Shown here: positions 40,708 to 48,139 of the stretch, piece by piece | Position numbering within the stretch: the stretch's first letter is position 1 | Layout: each line of letters opens with the position of its first letter | From: Desulfomonilia bacterium | GTDB taxonomy: Bacteria > Desulfobacterota > Desulfomonilia > UBA1062 | Assembly: GCA_050014195.1 (NCBI GenBank) | Contig: JBEKDT010000007.1 | Span: 96,001-160,000 of the forward strand | DNA length: 64,000 nt | Direction of reading: 5' to 3' | Translations under genes and position numbers: made by a program | Notes under the pieces: generated by a model | What the model was told of the DNA's origin: nothing | The model's database searches: none | What the model saw: the letters and a program-made list of their open reading frames with translations, nothing else

Positions 40708-41121
40708 ATGTCATCATTGGGAGAAAGGATTAAAGAGTTGCGGCAATCCATGGGATGGACACAAGATAGGCTAGCTCAAGAGGCTGAAATTAGTAAGAGC
40801 TTTTTGAGCGAAATAGAAAACAATAAAGTTAGCCTTAGTGGAGAAAATCTCCTGAAGATTGCCAATGTTTTGAACACGTCTCTTGATTATTTAATGAAGG
40901 GTAATTATGTCTCAAGTGAAAAAAAACCTTCAAAACCAATTGAAATACCAAGGGAATTATCAGAGTTAGCAGAAGACCTTTCACTATCCCATAAAGCTAC
41001 ACTTGCTCTACTAGAGGCACATAACTCTCTGATTGCTAGGAGAAGTGATAAAGAAAAGACTGAGATGACCAAGGATAATTGGAGGGATTTATTTGAAAAA
41101 CTAAAAGAATATTTAAAATAA
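40708..41121 (+). CDS. XRE-family HTH regulator (CapH-like)
   Basis: LGERIKELR..WTQDRLA..ISKSFLSEIEN..IANVLNTSLDYL; divergent from the CBASS operon. Confidence 0.9.
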   Translation: MSSLGERIKELRQSMGWTQDRLAQEAEISKSFLSEIENNKVSLSGENLLKIANVLNTSLDYLMKGNYVSSEKKPSKPIEIPRELSELAEDLSLSHKATLALLEAHNSLIARRSDKEKTEMTKDNWRDLFEKLKEYLK

Positions 41122-41123
41122 AT

Positions 41124-42164
41124 ATGGACAAGCTTAACAATTCAAAAATTATTCAAAAAATAGCTAGTGAACTCGGATTAAAAAGGTATCGAGATGGACA
41201 AAATGCGATCCGAGAGTTCTGTATACAGGAAGTTGAGAATATAAAAACCCAGTTTGGCTTAATTGATAATCTTTCAAAGCTGTTAGAAGTTGTAAGTTCT
41301 TTTCTAAGGATTCGCTTTGAAGAGGTTAATGATGATAATGATATTGAAGCCATAAGTAAGAAATATCTAGCCCAAGGAGAACTAAAATTCGCTGATCTCT
41401 CAAGGGAATTGGATGCATCTACTGATGCAGTAATGATTTGTTTGATGAAAGATAAAGTATGGAGATATTCGGCAGTAATTGATTGTAGAGGATATAAAAA
41501 ATTCAGGGCTTATTTTACTAAATGGCATGAGGTTGCTCACATACTTACAAGATCTCCTCAAACTTTTCTTTTTCACCGAACTCCTTATTTTAAGAGAGAT
41601 CCTGAGGAAATATTGGTCGATAGGATAGCAGGTGATTTAGCCTTTTATACTCCCCTTTTTCTACCCGAATTATTGGCAAGGACAAAAACTACGAAACGGC
41701 TTACATTTGATATAATAGAGGAAATCCGTGAAATTGTTTGCCAAGGTGCAAGTAGAGAGGCAACAATTCGAGGAGCTATCTCAAGAGCACCTTTCCCTCA
41801 ATTAATGGTTATTGCAGATTATGGATTGAAAAAAAGTGAAGAAAAAGAATTATCCTCGAATCAGGGATTATTATTTACAGAGGGGAATGGTCAATTTTTA
41901 CCAAAGTTACGAGCCGTTGATGTTATTGTAAATAAACCAGCTCTTAATATAGGTTTATGGATTCATAAGAACATGGAAGTACCACAAGAATCCATTATTA
42001 GAAAAGCATATGAAGAATCATCTCCAAATGAGATTTATCATAACCGCGAAAACCTAAGCTGGTGGAAACATTCCCGAGGGGGACAGCTTAATAATATATG
42101 TGTTGATGTAGAAGTTACAAAGATAGGCAGACGTGTCTATGCTTTTATTAGTATATGCCCCTGA
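41124..42164 (+). CDS. ImmA/IrrE-like Zn metallopeptidase (CapP-like)
   Basis: R..FTKWHEVAH (HExxH) and downstream EE; starts 2 bp after the XRE gene. Confidence 0.8.
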   Translation: MDKLNNSKIIQKIASELGLKRYRDGQNAIREFCIQEVENIKTQFGLIDNLSKLLEVVSSFLRIRFEEVNDDNDIEAISKKYLAQGELKFADLSRELDASTDAVMICLMKDKVWRYSAVIDCRGYKKFRAYFTKWHEVAHILTRSPQTFLFHRTPYFKRDPEEILVDRIAGDLAFYTPLFLPELLARTKTTKRLTFDIIEEIREIVCQGASREATIRGAISRAPFPQLMVIADYGLKKSEEKELSSNQGLLFTEGNGQFLPKLRAVDVIVNKPALNIGLWIHKNMEVPQESIIRKAYEESSPNEIYHNRENLSWWKHSRGGQLNNICVDVEVTKIGRRVYAFISICP

Positions 42165-42217
42165 TTACCCAAAAAGCGCCGATAACAAGGAATATGTAAT
42201 GTTTGAGAACCATGGTA

Positions 42218-42340
42218 TTCTATATAGATCGTGCCAATATTTATACTTCTGCATGAGGCCATGAAAAGTATAGATCTTATCAGGAGATAGAAGCTTTCCT
42301 TGGCGTGCTAGAGTACATGTTAATCGTAGTAACCTATACT
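42218..42340 (+). repeat. Diverged non-coding direct repeat, copy A
   Basis: Aligns with 48359-48480; shares the exact 21-mer GAGATAGAAGCTTTCCTTGGC. Confidence 0.7.
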
Positions 42341-42624
42341 TTCGCATATATATGCCGAAATTTTAAGAGATCTATGCTGTGGCGATCTATTCCTTAAGTG
42401 CAGATCTCATTCGAGGCTGTTGAAAAACTCAGGGGCGAATAAAGATAAAAATTTCGACCTCACAGAATGCCCGACATTAGATTTTTCGTGAAAGAGACTT
42501 ATGTTTTGATGGTTCAATTTGGGGATTTTTCCAACTTTTTGGAGTTTTTTGATACCCATCTAAAAGGTTTACTCTTCCAAACATAAGAGCCGTTAACGGA
42601 TAAAAAGCAAAAGGAGGCAATCTT

Positions 42625-43650
42625 ATGGGAGAGCTGTATGTAGGGTTGGATCTGCATTCAGTGAACACGTACGTGGGCATCATGGAAGGTGAAACAAAGA
42701 GAAGGATATACCAGAACAGGCACAGGAATGAACTAGGGGAGATCCTGCAAGCGCTGGAACCGTATCGATGTGAGGTAAAAGGGATCGTTGTTGAGAGCAC
42801 GTATAATTGGTGTTGGCTTGTCGATGGGTTGATGGATGCTGGATATGATTGCGTTCATTTGGCGAATCCAGCTGCAATGAAACAGTATGAGGGGATCAAG
42901 TATAAAGATGACCGTCATGATGCATTCTGGCTCGCTCAGCTACTTATCCTTGGCATCCTTCCTGAAGGATATATCTATCCCAAAGAAGACAGGCCGGTGA
43001 GAGATCTATTGAGGAAACGAGCGTTTTTGATGCGGCACAGGACAGCCAATATCCTCTCATGCCAATCGATGATTGAGAGGAACACTGGGTTACGAATATC
43101 TGGAGCTGGGATCAAGAAGCTCTGTACAGAGGACTTGAGGAAGATCTTCGCTGATGATCATCTATTATTTTCAGGGAAGATGAGTACATTCATCATCGAT
43201 GTCCTGGATCACCATATTAAGAGTATTGAAAAGATGGTGCGCAAGGTCTTGAAGATTCGCCCGGGGTTTGAGGATCTGCTGACCGTCACTGGCATAGGAG
43301 ATATCCTGGCGATGACCATCATGCTGGAGGTGGGGAATATATCCCGGTTCCCTGGGGTAGGCAATTTTTCTTCGTACTGCAGGTGTGTCAACAGCGTTCA
43401 TACCAGCAATGGGAAGAAGAAGGGTGTTGGCAACACAAAGAACGGGAACAAGTATTTAGCCTGGGCATTTATGGAAGCGAGCAATTTTGCCAGGATGCAC
43501 AGTGAACGGGCGAATGCGTACTATCAGCGCAAGTCCCGGGAGACGAATCCTATCATTGCGAGGAAGGCGCTTGCGAACAAGCTTTCCCGTGCGTGCTACT
43601 ACATCATGAGAGATCAGGTTCCTTTCAGGGAGGAGGCCTTGTTCTCATAG
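42625..43650 (+). CDS. IS110-family DEDD recombinase/transposase
   Basis: VGLDLH, VVEST, KDDRHDA, TVTGIG, SNGK..G..KNGNKYL, ALANKL. Confidence 0.95.
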   Translation: MGELYVGLDLHSVNTYVGIMEGETKRRIYQNRHRNELGEILQALEPYRCEVKGIVVESTYNWCWLVDGLMDAGYDCVHLANPAAMKQYEGIKYKDDRHDAFWLAQLLILGILPEGYIYPKEDRPVRDLLRKRAFLMRHRTANILSCQSMIERNTGLRISGAGIKKLCTEDLRKIFADDHLLFSGKMSTFIIDVLDHHIKSIEKMVRKVLKIRPGFEDLLTVTGIGDILAMTIMLEVGNISRFPGVGNFSSYCRCVNSVHTSNGKKKGVGNTKNGNKYLAWAFMEASNFARMHSERANAYYQRKSRETNPIIARKALANKLSRACYYIMRDQVPFREEALFS

Positions 43651-44120
43651 AATGGCTGGGGTGGTGAATCCGGAGAGACTGTTGGCTGACAACCAGTGTT
43701 TTTTGATTGATCCGCCACCCTATGCCCTAAAACTGAGATTATCCGGCAGGGAAGGATAATCCGTTTCTGATCCGCCTCTGGCATGAACCATGCGAGTTTG
43801 GACAAAGAGCCAAGGATTTTGAAATGAACATTTTGGACATGCCAGGGAACAGACGATTTTCTGGGGCCTGAAAATCAGGCCAAGGGTTACTAAGGCATTG
43901 GCTGTTGCTACGCTCCGAGATCCCTTTTGTCTCTCCGCTCCGCAACAGCCAGGCATGGCAACCTTGATCCCGATGGGTGACCGGTGCGGTTCAGGATAAA
44001 TGAATCGTAACCACATAAGAAAGAAATAACTGGTGTGGTATCGGAGATAGATAATCGTCCATGTTGGCGATACGGTAAACTCTGCAAGAGAAAAACGACT
44101 CTTGTATTGGGAGAGCTATT
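43651..44120 (+). ncRNA. Candidate bridge/seek RNA of the IS110 element
   Basis: Stem-loop 43659-43720 whose internal loop matches both halves of the insertion target; further hairpin 43899-43951; boundaries approximate. Confidence 0.6.
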
Positions 44121-44433
44121 TTCTCATTGACAGAACCTTTTAATGGGCAACAGCCTCTTCTGATACCTTCAAGACAGCTAAAGCACAGATGTCCTCACGA
44201 GATGTGCTCATGTATGACAAGGTCATTTCTAGAAAGATCGTTATATCGATAGCCAAAAAATAAGCTTCTGATGAAGCATAGATATCATTTGAGAACCTGA
44301 TTCGATCCCTTTCATAATGTTATATGATATAGTATCATTTAATTTAAATAATACCGATATATTACTGCGGTAGAACTTATGTAGGCTAATTTAAGTATCA
44401 ACAGTCAAGAACATTGGGATAAATTATTGTCAC

Positions 44434-45195
44434 ATGAATACATTCTTGAAGTATATTAAATTATCTATACTTGCAATATCGATCTTCCTTTGCTCAGGAT
44501 GTGGTTCAATCTTTACATACTCTTGGATGCACTTTGGTACATATATCCAGCCAAAAACAAATAGAGAGAGGATAGATTATTTCATGGGTTCTCGAAGTGA
44601 TAGTTCTTTAATATATTCTCCACTTGCATCTTCAGGGGATAATATTTTAAGAGCACTTGCCATTTTTGATTTTCCATTGTCTTTTACTATTGATACGGTG
44701 TTATTTCCCTTCCTCATTGTTGAAAATACCACCCTTCAGCCCAAGTATCATTTTTTTAAATATCCTTTCGATGTAAGTCGATCAGATAGTAAGCTTATCC
44801 AAGATCTATGGATTTCTGACGATCGTGGTTGTGTACTTTATCTAGAGTTCGACTATACTGATTTGTCGGATGCGGACCGTGTTTTTAAGCTTGTTGGTGA
44901 AGCTAAAGGGCATGATCCTGGGATAGTAATTCCACTCCATCTAAGGATTCTGAACATTGACAACAAGGAATTACCCCCAAAATTAATTCATGAATACACA
45001 GTCTTAACACAAAATCAGTATTCGCATGGTGCTCGGGATTATTGGCGAGAATTATCAAGAATTGCTCTTACTCAAGGAATTTATCGTGTTGAAGTCAGTA
45101 CCATAAAAGAGATTCCCGAATTCTCAGGAATTTCAACATATATTCAAATGTCGAAGCCAATTCCATTCTGGAGCCCATACATGTTCCATGATTGA
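44434..45195 (+). CDS. Lipoprotein with YceK/YidQ-like N-terminal domain and extra C-terminal beta domain
   Basis: Lipobox SGCGS, Y.G.R.D and DFPLSFTIDTVLFP motifs. Confidence 0.7.
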   Translation: MNTFLKYIKLSILAISIFLCSGCGSIFTYSWMHFGTYIQPKTNRERIDYFMGSRSDSSLIYSPLASSGDNILRALAIFDFPLSFTIDTVLFPFLIVENTTLQPKYHFFKYPFDVSRSDSKLIQDLWISDDRGCVLYLEFDYTDLSDADRVFKLVGEAKGHDPGIVIPLHLRILNIDNKELPPKLIHEYTVLTQNQYSHGARDYWRELSRIALTQGIYRVEVSTIKEIPEFSGISTYIQMSKPIPFWSPYMFHD

Positions 45196-45652: not shown

Positions 45653-48139
45653 ATGAAAAAACATTTTTCTGTTAGTTTGATGGCCATTCTAATTCTAGTC
45701 TTGACTCTCTCTGGCTGCTATCTCCACAGCCGAGCTTTGACCACAACTTCATCTTCATCCACAAAATATTTTGCCTATGTCGCTGGTGGAGTACGCAATT
45801 ACATCTACGCCTATTCCATTAACGCCACGACCGGCGCGTTGACAGTTGCTTGCGGAAGTCCCTTTGCCACCAGTTCGAGTCCTCAATCAATCACAGTGGA
45901 CCCGATCGGTAAATTCGCTTATGTGACAAGTCAATTTTCAAATAATATCTCGATTTATTCCATTGACGCCACGACCGGTGCGTTGACTAAAATAAGTGAT
46001 AGCCCCTGTGCTGCCGGGTTGAGGCCTCTGTCAATCACCATGGACCCGACAGGTAAGTTTACTTATGTCACAAGTCATTTTTCAAATAATATCTCGGTTT
46101 ATTCCATTGACGCCACGACCGGCGCATTGACAGAAATAAGTGATAGCCCCTTTGCTGCCGGTTTGAAGCCTCAGTCAGTCACCGTGGACCCGACAGGTAA
46201 ATTCGCCTATGTCGCAAATCTTGGTTCAAATAACATCTCCACCTACTCTATTGATGCCACAACCGGTTCTTTGAGAGCTATTAACGGAAGTCCTTTTGCC
46301 GCTGCTTTAAACCCTAAATCAGTCACAGTGGACCCGACCGGTAAGTTCGCCTATGTCGCAAATCTTGGTTCAAATAACATCTCCGCCTACTCTATTGATA
46401 CCACAACCGGTTCTTTGCGAGCTATTGACGGAAGTCCTTTTGCCGCTGCTTTAAACCCTGAATCAGTCACAGTGGACCCGACCGGTAAGTTCGCCTATGT
46501 CGCAAATCATTCTTCAAATAATGTCTCAGCCTATTCCATTGACGCCACGACCGGCGCGTTGACGGAAATAAGCGATAGCCCCTTTGCTGCCGGTTTGAGG
46601 CCTCTGTCAGTAACAGTGGACCCAACAGGTAAATTCGCTTATGTCGTAAATTTTAGTTCAAATAATATCTCAGCCTATTCCATTAATGCCACGAGCGGAG
46701 CATTGACGTCTATTAGCGGAAGCCCCTTTGATACCGTTTCGGAATTTTCATCAATTATTACTGTAAGAATAAAGCATACACTGAGTTGTGGTAGCAATTG
46801 TAACACAGGAAGTGTAGGCACTCCTTCGGTTAAAATGAAAAATACAAATCTTGTAGATCTAACAAGAAATATTTCTTTATGGACATGGGTATCCGGGGAT
46901 ATTTCGGTTGACCAGATCGGGGTTTATGGCACTAAAGGAGTTGCTGCAGCCACAAATAAACCGGGAGGGCGGGTTGCTAGCATAAGTTGGACGGACAGCA
47001 AAGGTAATCTCTATCTCTTCGGTGGGTTTGGATATGACAGCGCAGGAAGTTTGGGATGGCTCAATGACCTATGGAAATATGACAGATCTGACTGGACATG
47101 GGTATCCGGGGATATTTCGGTTAACCAGATCGGAGCCTATGGCACTAAAGGAGTTGCTGCAGCCACAAATAAACCAGGGAGTCGGTGTGAAAGCATAAGT
47201 TGGACGGACAGCAGAGGTAATTTCTGGCTCTTCGGTGGGAATGGGAATGACAGCTCAGGAACGACCAACGGCGGTTATCTTAATGACCTATGGAAATATG
47301 ACGGAACGAACTGGACCTGGGTATCCGGGGATAATACGCAAGGCCAGCTTGGGGTCTATGGCACTAAAAGAGTAACATCAGCCACGAATAAGCCGGGGGC
47401 TCGGATCGGCAGTATAAGCTGGATGGACAGTAGTGGCAATCTCTGGCTCTTCGGCGGAAGGGGATTTGATGGCACAGGCATTGGGTATCTCAACGACCTG
47501 TGGAAATTCGACGGTGCCAACTGGACCTGGGTATCCGGGGATAGTATGGTTGCCCAGAACGGGGTTTATGGTACTAAAAAAGTTGCTGCTGGCACTAACA
47601 AACCAGGTGCGCGGAGTGGGAGCATAAGCTGGATAGACAGCAGCGGTAATCTGTGGCTCTTGGGTGGAGGTGGGTTTGACAGGGCAGGAAATTGGGGTTG
47701 TCTCAACGACCTGTGGAAATACGACGGTGTCAACTGGACCTGGGTATCCGGGGATAGTTACGTTAACCAGATCGGAGCCTATGGCACTAAAGGAGTTGCT
47801 GCAGTCACGAATAAACCAGGGGCACGGTTCGACAGCATAAGCTGGATGGATAAAAGTGATAATCTCTGGCTATTCGGCGGGATAGGTTATGACAACACAG
47901 GAAAATATAGTAGTCTCAACGATCTGTGGAAATTTGACAGAAAGGACTGGATCTGGATATCCGGGGATAGTACTGTTGACCAGAGCGCAGTCAATGGCAC
48001 TAAAGGAATTGCTGCAGCCACGAATAAACCGGGGGCACGGTTCGGCAGTATAAGCTGGATGGACAGCAATGGCAATCTCTGGCTCTTCGGCGGAAGGGGA
48101 CAAGGTGTTTTCAACGACTTATGGAAAGTCTCACCATAG
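45653..48139 (+). CDS. Lipoprotein with 7 lactonase-type propeller repeats and 6 Kelch-like repeats
   Basis: Lipobox LSGC; 48-aa DPTGKFAYV repeats; WTWVSGD..KPG.R..SW.D..GNLWLFGG..LNDLWK repeats. Confidence 0.88.
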   Translation: MKKHFSVSLMAILILVLTLSGCYLHSRALTTTSSSSTKYFAYVAGGVRNYIYAYSINATTGALTVACGSPFATSSSPQSITVDPIGKFAYVTSQFSNNISIYSIDATTGALTKISDSPCAAGLRPLSITMDPTGKFTYVTSHFSNNISVYSIDATTGALTEISDSPFAAGLKPQSVTVDPTGKFAYVANLGSNNISTYSIDATTGSLRAINGSPFAAALNPKSVTVDPTGKFAYVANLGSNNISAYSIDTTTGSLRAIDGSPFAAALNPESVTVDPTGKFAYVANHSSNNVSAYSIDATTGALTEISDSPFAAGLRPLSVTVDPTGKFAYVVNFSSNNISAYSINATSGALTSISGSPFDTVSEFSSIITVRIKHTLSCGSNCNTGSVGTPSVKMKNTNLVDLTRNISLWTWVSGDISVDQIGVYGTKGVAAATNKPGGRVASISWTDSKGNLYLFGGFGYDSAGSLGWLNDLWKYDRSDWTWVSGDISVNQIGAYGTKGVAAATNKPGSRCESISWTDSRGNFWLFGGNGNDSSGTTNGGYLNDLWKYDGTNWTWVSGDNTQGQLGVYGTKRVTSATNKPGARIGSISWMDSSGNLWLFGGRGFDGTGIGYLNDLWKFDGANWTWVSGDSMVAQNGVYGTKKVAAGTNKPGARSGSISWIDSSGNLWLLGGGGFDRAGNWGCLNDLWKYDGVNWTWVSGDSYVNQIGAYGTKGVAAVTNKPGARFDSISWMDKSDNLWLFGGIGYDNTGKYSSLNDLWKFDRKDWIWISGDSTVDQSAVNGTKGIAAATNKPGARFGSISWMDSNGNLWLFGGRGQGVFNDLWKVSP

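Follow-up and report, generated by a model that had tools for sequence, protein, structure and literature searches.

A predicted guide RNA encoded 3' of the transposase gene in an IS1111-group insertion sequence of an uncultured peat bacterium

The locus examined here lies in a 64,000-nucleotide stretch of Desulfomonilia DNA (the window, whose positions are used throughout) and raises the question of what is encoded in the 497 nt that follow the stop codon of a transposase gene, and of how this segment might relate to the place at which the element was inserted. We conclude, with a probability of about 0.88, that 43651-44147 is the right non-coding end of an IS1111-group insertion sequence (IS) and that it encodes the predicted guide RNA of the DEDD transposase of the element. 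An earlier, sequence-only reading of this DNA had proposed an IS1111-type element with a guide RNA encoded 3' of its gene, and this is upheld by the protein family, by the order of the guide segments and by their covariation with the flanks. The same reading had suggested a new kind of recombinase/RNA pair. This part is given up, as the pair belongs to a class already known: Durrant et al. 2024 (PMC11208160) predicted bridge RNAs for 93% of the catalogued IS1111 elements, placing them in the right end.

Positions 42550-44147 of the window are a 1598-bp insertion sequence of the IS1111 group (IS110 family). The element and its immediate surroundings are laid out as follows.

42413-42549, forward strand: MITE-like repeat bearing the IS, with its left terminal repeat at 42413-42430
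42541-42549, forward strand: left target half GGAGTTTTT, within the MITE-like repeat
42550-42624, forward strand: left end of the IS, 75 bp, which begins TGATACC, followed by CATCTAAAAGG (42557-42567) and a ribosome-binding site
42625-43650, forward strand: transposase gene, 341 aa, DEDD/RuvC-like plus Tnp domain (Pfam, NCBIfam and alignment to IS621)
44127-44132, forward strand: outward -35 hexamer TTGACA of a presumed circle-junction promoter, kept as TTGAC in the alignment
44136-44147, forward strand: right subterminal inverted repeat CCTTTTAATG plus terminal GG, the IS ending at 44147
44148-44157, forward strand: right target half CAACAGCCTC, the remainder of the right terminal repeat of the MITE

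The transposase matches PF01548 with 35.4 bits and PF02371 with 55.3 bits, both over their cut-offs, and the NCBIfam model NF033542, "IS110 family RNA-guided transposase", with 172 bits against a cut-off of 140. Residues D9, E57, D96, D99 and S261 align to the catalytic D11, E60, D102, D105 and S241 of the IS621 recombinase, the structure of which is solved. A DEDD N-terminal domain is combined with a PF02371 C-terminal domain and its conserved serine, this serine being followed by N-G rather than G. The alignment to IS621 runs end to end but is weak (E = 1.7e-6). The IS1111 group is described as having transposases of 330-350 aa and a longer non-coding region 3' of the gene (PMC11187229), and the element has the same proportions, with 341 aa, a left end of 75 bp and a right end of 497 bp. 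Its nearest named label is "ISGsu4 family", an annotation on plasmid records at 47% protein identity. We take ISGsu4 to be a member of the IS1111 group, and a literature search on ISGsu4 found no paper on its RNA.

The ends of the element point to the same group. CATCTAAAAGG and CCTTTTAATG (44136-44145) form an inverted repeat in which 10 of 11 positions match and one base is extra, beyond which the element extends by 7 bp at its left end and by 2 bp at its right end. For IS1111 elements, subterminal inverted repeats of about 11-13 bp with asymmetric extensions of 7 bp left and 3 bp right are described in PMC11187229. Amongst relatives the left end TGATAATCAT... is kept and the two arms co-vary, as in ..TAGAAGG with CCTTCTA... 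Judged from the letters of its ends, the element thus carries the subterminal inverted repeats with short asymmetric extensions that are a hallmark of the IS1111 group.

The host repeat runs to 42549 and resumes at 44148, and the IS lies between these positions, inside the right terminal repeat. By BLAST against the genome, the sequence upstream of the transposase gene belongs to a repeat some 135-150 bp long that is bounded by terminal inverted repeats. Elsewhere in the genome this repeat is intact on contigs C18, C4 and C9 and is present in part on C12. Reassembled from 42413-42549 and 44148-44157, this MITE-like repeat has 18-bp terminal inverted repeats and five genome copies by BLAST; no transposase was linked to its copies. 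Further sites in the genome carry related terminal repeats, which suggests that there are several related repeat families.

Insertion took place between the T and the C of a TTTTT/CAACAG run in the terminal repeat of the MITE, with no target bases duplicated. An exact 11-mer spanning the uninterrupted insertion point has 16 copies in the same genome, 10 of which continue like the terminal repeat (one being the left repeat of the same MITE, on the 42413 side), and these 10 repeat-like empty sites carry the uninterrupted TTTTTCAACAG run. Furthermore, 42520-42549 is followed directly by the ten right-flank bases in a low-depth metagenome contig of 184 nt (depth 2.4), whose run is a possible source of this DNA. 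Since unoccupied target sites are seen, the boundaries of the IS are fixed, and the lack of a core duplication, which had been put forward from the sequence alone, is borne out both by the empty sites in the genome and by the metagenome contig.

A second IS, 89% identical in protein (L005), occupies the same position in the same kind of repeat in a related genome. There the host repeat is oppositely oriented and has other sequence around it, which indicates an independent insertion. The right flank of L005 agrees with the 5' guide at 10 of 10 positions. Insertion at one position and in one orientation without duplication is therefore seen on two insertions of this lineage, that of the window and that of L005, and since a metagenome scan for close relatives returned none (best 66% identity), it is on these two that the target logo of the exact lineage rests. 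About a third of the related elements (L040, L046-L048, L054, L061, L068 and many others) share a target that reads ..AAGAC(C/T) / TGACCCC..., which hints at a common repeat or at the end of another mobile element.

Directly 3' of the stop codon, the right end begins with a stem-loop, SL1, with these parts.

43654-43726, forward strand: SL1, the predicted seekRNA or target-binding loop, with a closing stem at about 43654-43666 / 43713-43726
43673-43684, forward strand: 5' guide (right target), complementary to the top strand of the right flank at 10 of 12 positions
43683-43694, forward strand: loop cap with UGG ... CC, invariant in the alignment columns
43695-43707, forward strand: 3' guide (left target), in the sense of the left flank and extending into the TGAT of the IS start

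The minimum-free-energy fold of SL1 has -35.1 kcal/mol (z = -4.9 against shuffled sequence). In this fold the two guide strands are paired with each other, and the open loop drawn here is a model. Compensatory changes are seen at each of the eight predicted pairs of the closing stem in an alignment of 78 distinct sequences, from which L050 (too short) and L058, L067 and L073 (loop disrupted) were left out. The outer stem that the sequence-only reading had drawn at 43659-43670/43709-43720 is thus real but is better placed as listed above. Of the two words that had been picked out inside the loop, GAGACTGTTG at 43675-43684 does agree at 9 of 10 positions with GAGGCTGTTG, a sequence read on the bottom strand of 44148-44157 in the right flank and met again in the left repeat of the MITE at 42413-42422. 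The other, GTGTTTTTTGA at 43696-43706, differs from the uninterrupted target by one mismatch and by a UG opposite CA, just as had been claimed, and agrees at 10 of 11 positions with the actual left junction GAGTTTTTTGA (42542-42552). Within this region, 43698-43707 is identical to 42544-42553, so that the 3' guide matches the left flank and the start of the IS. In the window, guides and flanks do not match perfectly, agreeing at 10 of 12 and 7 of 9 positions. SL1 has the segment order of IS1111 seekRNAs, in which the top-strand complement comes first, 5' of the bottom-strand complement (PMC11187229).

It might be asked whether these matches are due to chance, or are a by-product of a palindromic target, SL1 then being a terminator-like hairpin after the gene. 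The target is part of an inverted repeat, so that short self-similar words are common, and the 11-mer, one mismatch allowed, is no rarity in the window, four being found against 2.0 expected (the expectation for the 10-mer is 3.3, in each case over 64 kb and both strands). However, finding both words on one strand within one 75-nt loop has chance odds of about 1e-6 by our own arithmetic, no terminator-like site was called at SL1, and the invariant loop bases and covarying stem indicate a structure under selection. Since, in addition, both guide positions follow the flanks over many different targets in two data sets (see below), we consider an origin by chance highly improbable.

The first of these sets was assembled by searching the taxonomic family and scanning a single genome for each species, which gave 91 usable loci, or 88 after three duplicates were dropped, with 48%-89% protein identity to the query. 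Almost all of them have the same hairpin directly 3' of the stop codon and the cap with the invariant UGG...CC. The second set was taken from metagenome contigs, where 73 loci were aligned and five without anchor bases were dropped, leaving 68. The loop was extracted by MAFFT alignment. In set 1 the last five bases of the 3' guide were identical to the left flank of their own locus at 73-86% per position, against a column-composition background of 32-44% (n = 74), and the 5' guide agreed with the complement of right-flank bases 3-10 at 48-82% (n = 67). The observed totals were reached by none of 10,000 shuffles of the flanks amongst the loci, for either strand, and the outcome was unchanged when one locus was kept per distinct guide (51 and 45 guides). 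The result for set 2 was the same, with 0 of 10,000 shuffles for both strands (n = 56 and 52). These shuffle tests overstate independence, since related elements inherit guide and target together; nevertheless, dozens of different guide-target pairs agree. In the comparison across homologous right ends that had been proposed as a check, both segments therefore follow the flanks, and do so in two sets; the lack of covariation that would have refuted the sequence-only reading is thus not what is observed. This supports SL1 as a seekRNA or bridge-RNA target-binding loop, a predicted guide that would read both sides of the host repeat.

We propose that the RNA would be made from a circle-junction promoter or by read-through from the transposase gene, and would bind the transposase; no RNA sequencing run containing the stretch was found. 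On the right target half the top strand could then be bound by the 5' strand of SL1 (43673-43684), and on the left half the bottom strand by the 3' strand (43695-43707), and such two-sided pairing would result in one fixed insertion position and no target duplication. With CA at the target centre, the 5' guide would form Watson-Crick pairs there and the 3' guide wobble pairs (U-G and G-T).

The centre deserves attention, since it is here that the window departs from an identical donor and target central dinucleotide of the IS621 type: the target has CA and the element starts with TG. Amongst the relatives, left end and right flank begin with the same dinucleotide in 54 of 64 loci, 53 of these being TG/TG. 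In the 10 differing loci the flank is CG (four), CA (two, namely the window and L005), TA (two) or GG (one), and the last has TG against a GG left end; nine of the 10 have a left end that retains TG. In SL1, each of the two guide strands has UG at the centre. By standard pairing rules this dinucleotide admits TG, CG, TA and CA as partners, whichever strand is read, via Watson-Crick or G-U/G-T pairs, and we infer that wobble pairing of this kind would cover eight of the 10 exceptional centres. We also considered whether the TG/CA difference might have come from a staggered cut followed by replication, by way of a heteroduplex; the loci do not show the cut positions.

Beyond SL1 the right end continues with a long structured region, the parts of which are given below.

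43769-43992, forward strand: conserved structured domain, closed by the long-range helix 43769-43775 / 43986-43992 (RNAalifold)
43776-43847, forward strand: SL2, a second loop built like SL1, the 3' strand of which follows the left flank in relatives and does so weakly in the window
43854-43863, forward strand: invariant linker GATTTTCTGG in the multiloop, an unproven candidate for a left-end partner
43865-43881, forward strand: hairpin P3, six pairs, all with compensatory changes
43884-43964, forward strand: helix P4, 43884-43887 / 43961-43964, around a variable hairpin (RNAalifold)
43972-43981, forward strand: GATGGGTGAC in the multiloop, a candidate donor guide made up of right-end bases, TG and right-flank bases 3-4

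The length of this right end, about 500 bp, had been singled out as a trait of the element. It is indeed 497 nt from the stop codon but is typical of the subfamily, the medians being 452 nt (n = 66) and 458 nt (n = 56) in the two sets, and so does not distinguish it. RNAalifold on 24 right ends predicted 47 pairs, 35 of them with compensatory changes. An Rfam scan of 41500-45000 with E-values up to 10 returned four hits, all at chance level, and no family.

The multiloop motif ATGGGTGA had been reported at 43973-43980 as equal to the predicted circle junction, and it is found there, unpaired in the multiloop between helices P4 and P2. Its identity as the circle junction does not stand, since the motif follows the right end and right-flank bases 3-4; it resembles the circle junction only because the third base of the flank happens to be A. 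Amongst relatives the motif reads GATGGG-TG-NN, where NN are right-flank bases 3 and 4 in 58 and 54 of 63 loci in set 1 and in 51 and 51 of 54 loci in set 2. The types of NN seen are AC, CC, TC, GC and CA, and in neither set was the observed value reached by any of 10,000 shuffles. In loci whose right end has GGA in place of GGG, the motif has GGA as well (L051; L081, L087, L088 and L089; L114; L134), a rule that L180 breaks. The groups with flanks starting TGCC, TGGC and TGTC show that the motif does not follow the left end, TGAT, and in L069, where the left end reads CG, the motif keeps UG. We therefore read the multiloop GAUGGGUGAC as a probable guide for the right end that would run two bases into the right flank, a DNA-level inner copy of the right junction being also possible, and the last dinucleotide of GATGGGTGAC is a candidate for a handshake-like contact. 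This reading fits the remark in PMC11208160 that many IS1111 elements have their donor-binding nucleotides in a multiloop, and resembles the handshake guides described in PMC11208158.

A bridge-RNA donor loop has guides for both strands, of which one was found here (GATGGGTGAC, for the right end). No consistently placed match to the left end, direct or complementary, was found when 66 right ends were scanned for 9-mers with at most one mismatch. The linker GATTTTCTGG resembles the common left-end complement with one bulge but is invariant where the left end varies, and was not counted as a left-end guide.

SL2 raises the question of whether more than one loop reads the target. At non-consensus positions of the left flank, its 3' strand matches in 72 of 128 cases in one set and in 51 of 95 in the other, compared with 98 of 128 and 67 of 95 for SL1, and its 5' strand follows the right flank weakly. 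SL2 matches the flanks of the window poorly. It could be that the right end encodes a composite guide, in which SL1 is joined by a bridge-like domain comprising SL2 and a right-end multiloop guide that reaches two target bases. The target loops would then act at different steps (excision and insertion) or in direct transfer, a route that has been proposed for an IS110 element of Caloranaerobacter (bioRxiv 10.1101/2025.10.25.684509). With UG on its two guide strands, the element would be able to accept any centre of the pyrimidine-purine type (TG, CG, TA, CA) via wobble, so that donor and target centres need not be identical. We offer this elaboration tentatively and regard it as doubtful in its full form.

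A simpler arrangement would have SL1 alone as the guide, the inner ATGGGTGAC motif being a DNA-level copy of the right junction or an alternative end for modular circles, and SL2 a decaying duplicate of SL1. In its favour, the 82-nt seekRNA of ISEc11 alone is reported to have given transposition at 42% (PMC11187229), ISPpu9 is described as forming circles from alternative modules (PMC12288879), and the motif with its two next bases is a direct repeat of the right junction; the looser tie of SL2 to the left flank and the weak one of its 5' strand to the right flank also lean this way. However, the motif is unpaired between P4 and P2 in a fold rich in compensatory changes, and many IS1111 elements are reported in PMC11208160 to have donor-binding nucleotides in a multiloop. 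In addition, no element ending at the inner motif was seen, the short right ends of L058 and L067 being internal deletions, and the SL2 match beat all 10,000 shuffles in both sets. We consider it rather unlikely that SL1 is the whole of the guide. The reading of the right end as encoding a predicted guide RNA, with SL1 as its target-binding loop, is the one retained in what follows.

Some further features of the right end were observed. The variable hairpin stem in P4 (43898-43951) contains GCAACAGCC and its complement, which is the first 8-mer of the right flank, and L005 has the same P4 hairpin with 7 of 8 bases matching its own flank; relatives with this hairpin read GCAACC.., and the GCAACAGCC match may be due to chance. 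Contigs in runs X11 and X19 join 43865 to 43960/43963 with about 30 different letters between the conserved blocks, so that other members of the IS subfamily live in the same peat-metagenome habitats. No circle junction was seen in the metagenome contigs, which says nothing about its absence, and three joints in them belong to other family members with a different variable hairpin. The right ends of L058, L067 and L073 have SL1 or SL2 deleted or disrupted and keep the end motifs; these elements may be non-autonomous or decaying.

Is the element in the window still in use? Its transposase gene is single-copy, and the 4.2-Mb genome holds one copy of the IS. The outward hexamer TTGACA does lie at 44127, where the sequence-only reading had located it, and is kept as TTGAC in the alignment of 24 right ends. 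The same reading had made out no clear -10 across the circle junction, and a poor -10 is indeed what is seen, the would-be -10 being GATACC in the window, after a 16-nt spacer, and GATAAT in relatives. Since the IS is single-copy despite empty targets and has this weak -10, it may be barely active. A more radical view would be that the IS is a fixed relic, its guide features inherited and out of use. This would account for the single copy with nine further repeat-like targets empty, for the degraded -10 and for an SL2 that hardly matches the flanks of the window. Against it, the reading frame is open with all catalytic residues present, the guides still match the flanks, and the 89%-identical element has been inserted separately in a related genome. 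A locus unchanged in runs X11 and X14, where contigs span the whole stretch, argues weakly in the same direction, both runs being possible sources of the DNA. On this evidence we think that a relic is possible but on the unlikely side.

The element resembles the IS1111 elements with bench-tested seekRNAs described by Siddiquee et al. 2024 (ISEc11, ISPa11, ISKpn4 and ISPst6; PMC11187229) in several respects. It has a 341-aa DEDD transposase with a long non-coding region 3' of the gene, a hairpin of about 75 nt just 3' of the stop codon with the top-strand complement 5' of the bottom-strand complement, subterminal inverted repeats, no target duplication and foldable repeat targets. It differs from the published elements in that the sequences are unrelated, in that the target is the terminal repeat of a MITE, and in that it is known from sequence alone. 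Its right end is also the longer, at 497 nt with about 340 nt of further conserved fold, the published long forms being given as 148-172 nt (PMC13604230).

Compared with the IS621 bridge RNA, as presented in PMC11208160 and PMC11208158, the likeness lies in the internal-loop sides that would read both target strands, in a second guide region that would read the element's own end, in the catalytic residues common to both, and in guide bases that would pass the centre into the partner DNA, as in the handshake guides of IS621 (Hiraizumi et al. 2024, PMC11208158). Unlike IS621 in these accounts, the element has its RNA in the right end and not the left, with the guide order reversed, and its donor-like guide lies in a multiloop and not in a simple internal loop, with one donor-strand guide found. 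IS621 recombines at a shared CT, in contrast to the CA target and TG element here.

As to the choice of target, the element can be likened, by description only, to a pair of IS1111-type elements that also have the terminal inverted repeat of another mobile element as a specific target. These are IS4321 and IS5075, of the IS1111 family, which reportedly insert into the terminal repeats of Tn21-family transposons (work attributed to Partridge and Hall, 2003). The target here is, unlike theirs, a MITE-like repeat of 135-150 bp in an uncultured peat bacterium.

Since the class was described in 2024, the finding confirms known biology and does not change it. Its value lies in a cleanly delimited transposase-guide pair from an uncultured peat bacterium, with both target halves known and empty targets in the same genome. 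The family comparison furthermore yields three testable rules for IS1111 guides, which state which loop positions would read which flank bases, that a right-end guide in the multiloop would continue into the flank, and that a mismatch between donor and target centres would be tolerated. Recombinases of the IS1111 type have received less study than IS621, and such rules could help in designing their guides.

The genes around the element were also noted. On its 5' side, 40708-42164 encodes an HTH_3 (Cro/C1-type) regulator of 137 aa, 2 bp before a 346-aa protein without a Pfam match that contains an HEVAH motif, and the pair looks like a repressor with a metallopeptidase-like partner. On its 3' side lie a predicted lipoprotein with DUF5625 (44434-45195) and an 828-aa protein (45653-48139) that has many near-identical repeats of about 45 aa followed by Kelch-like-looking repeats.
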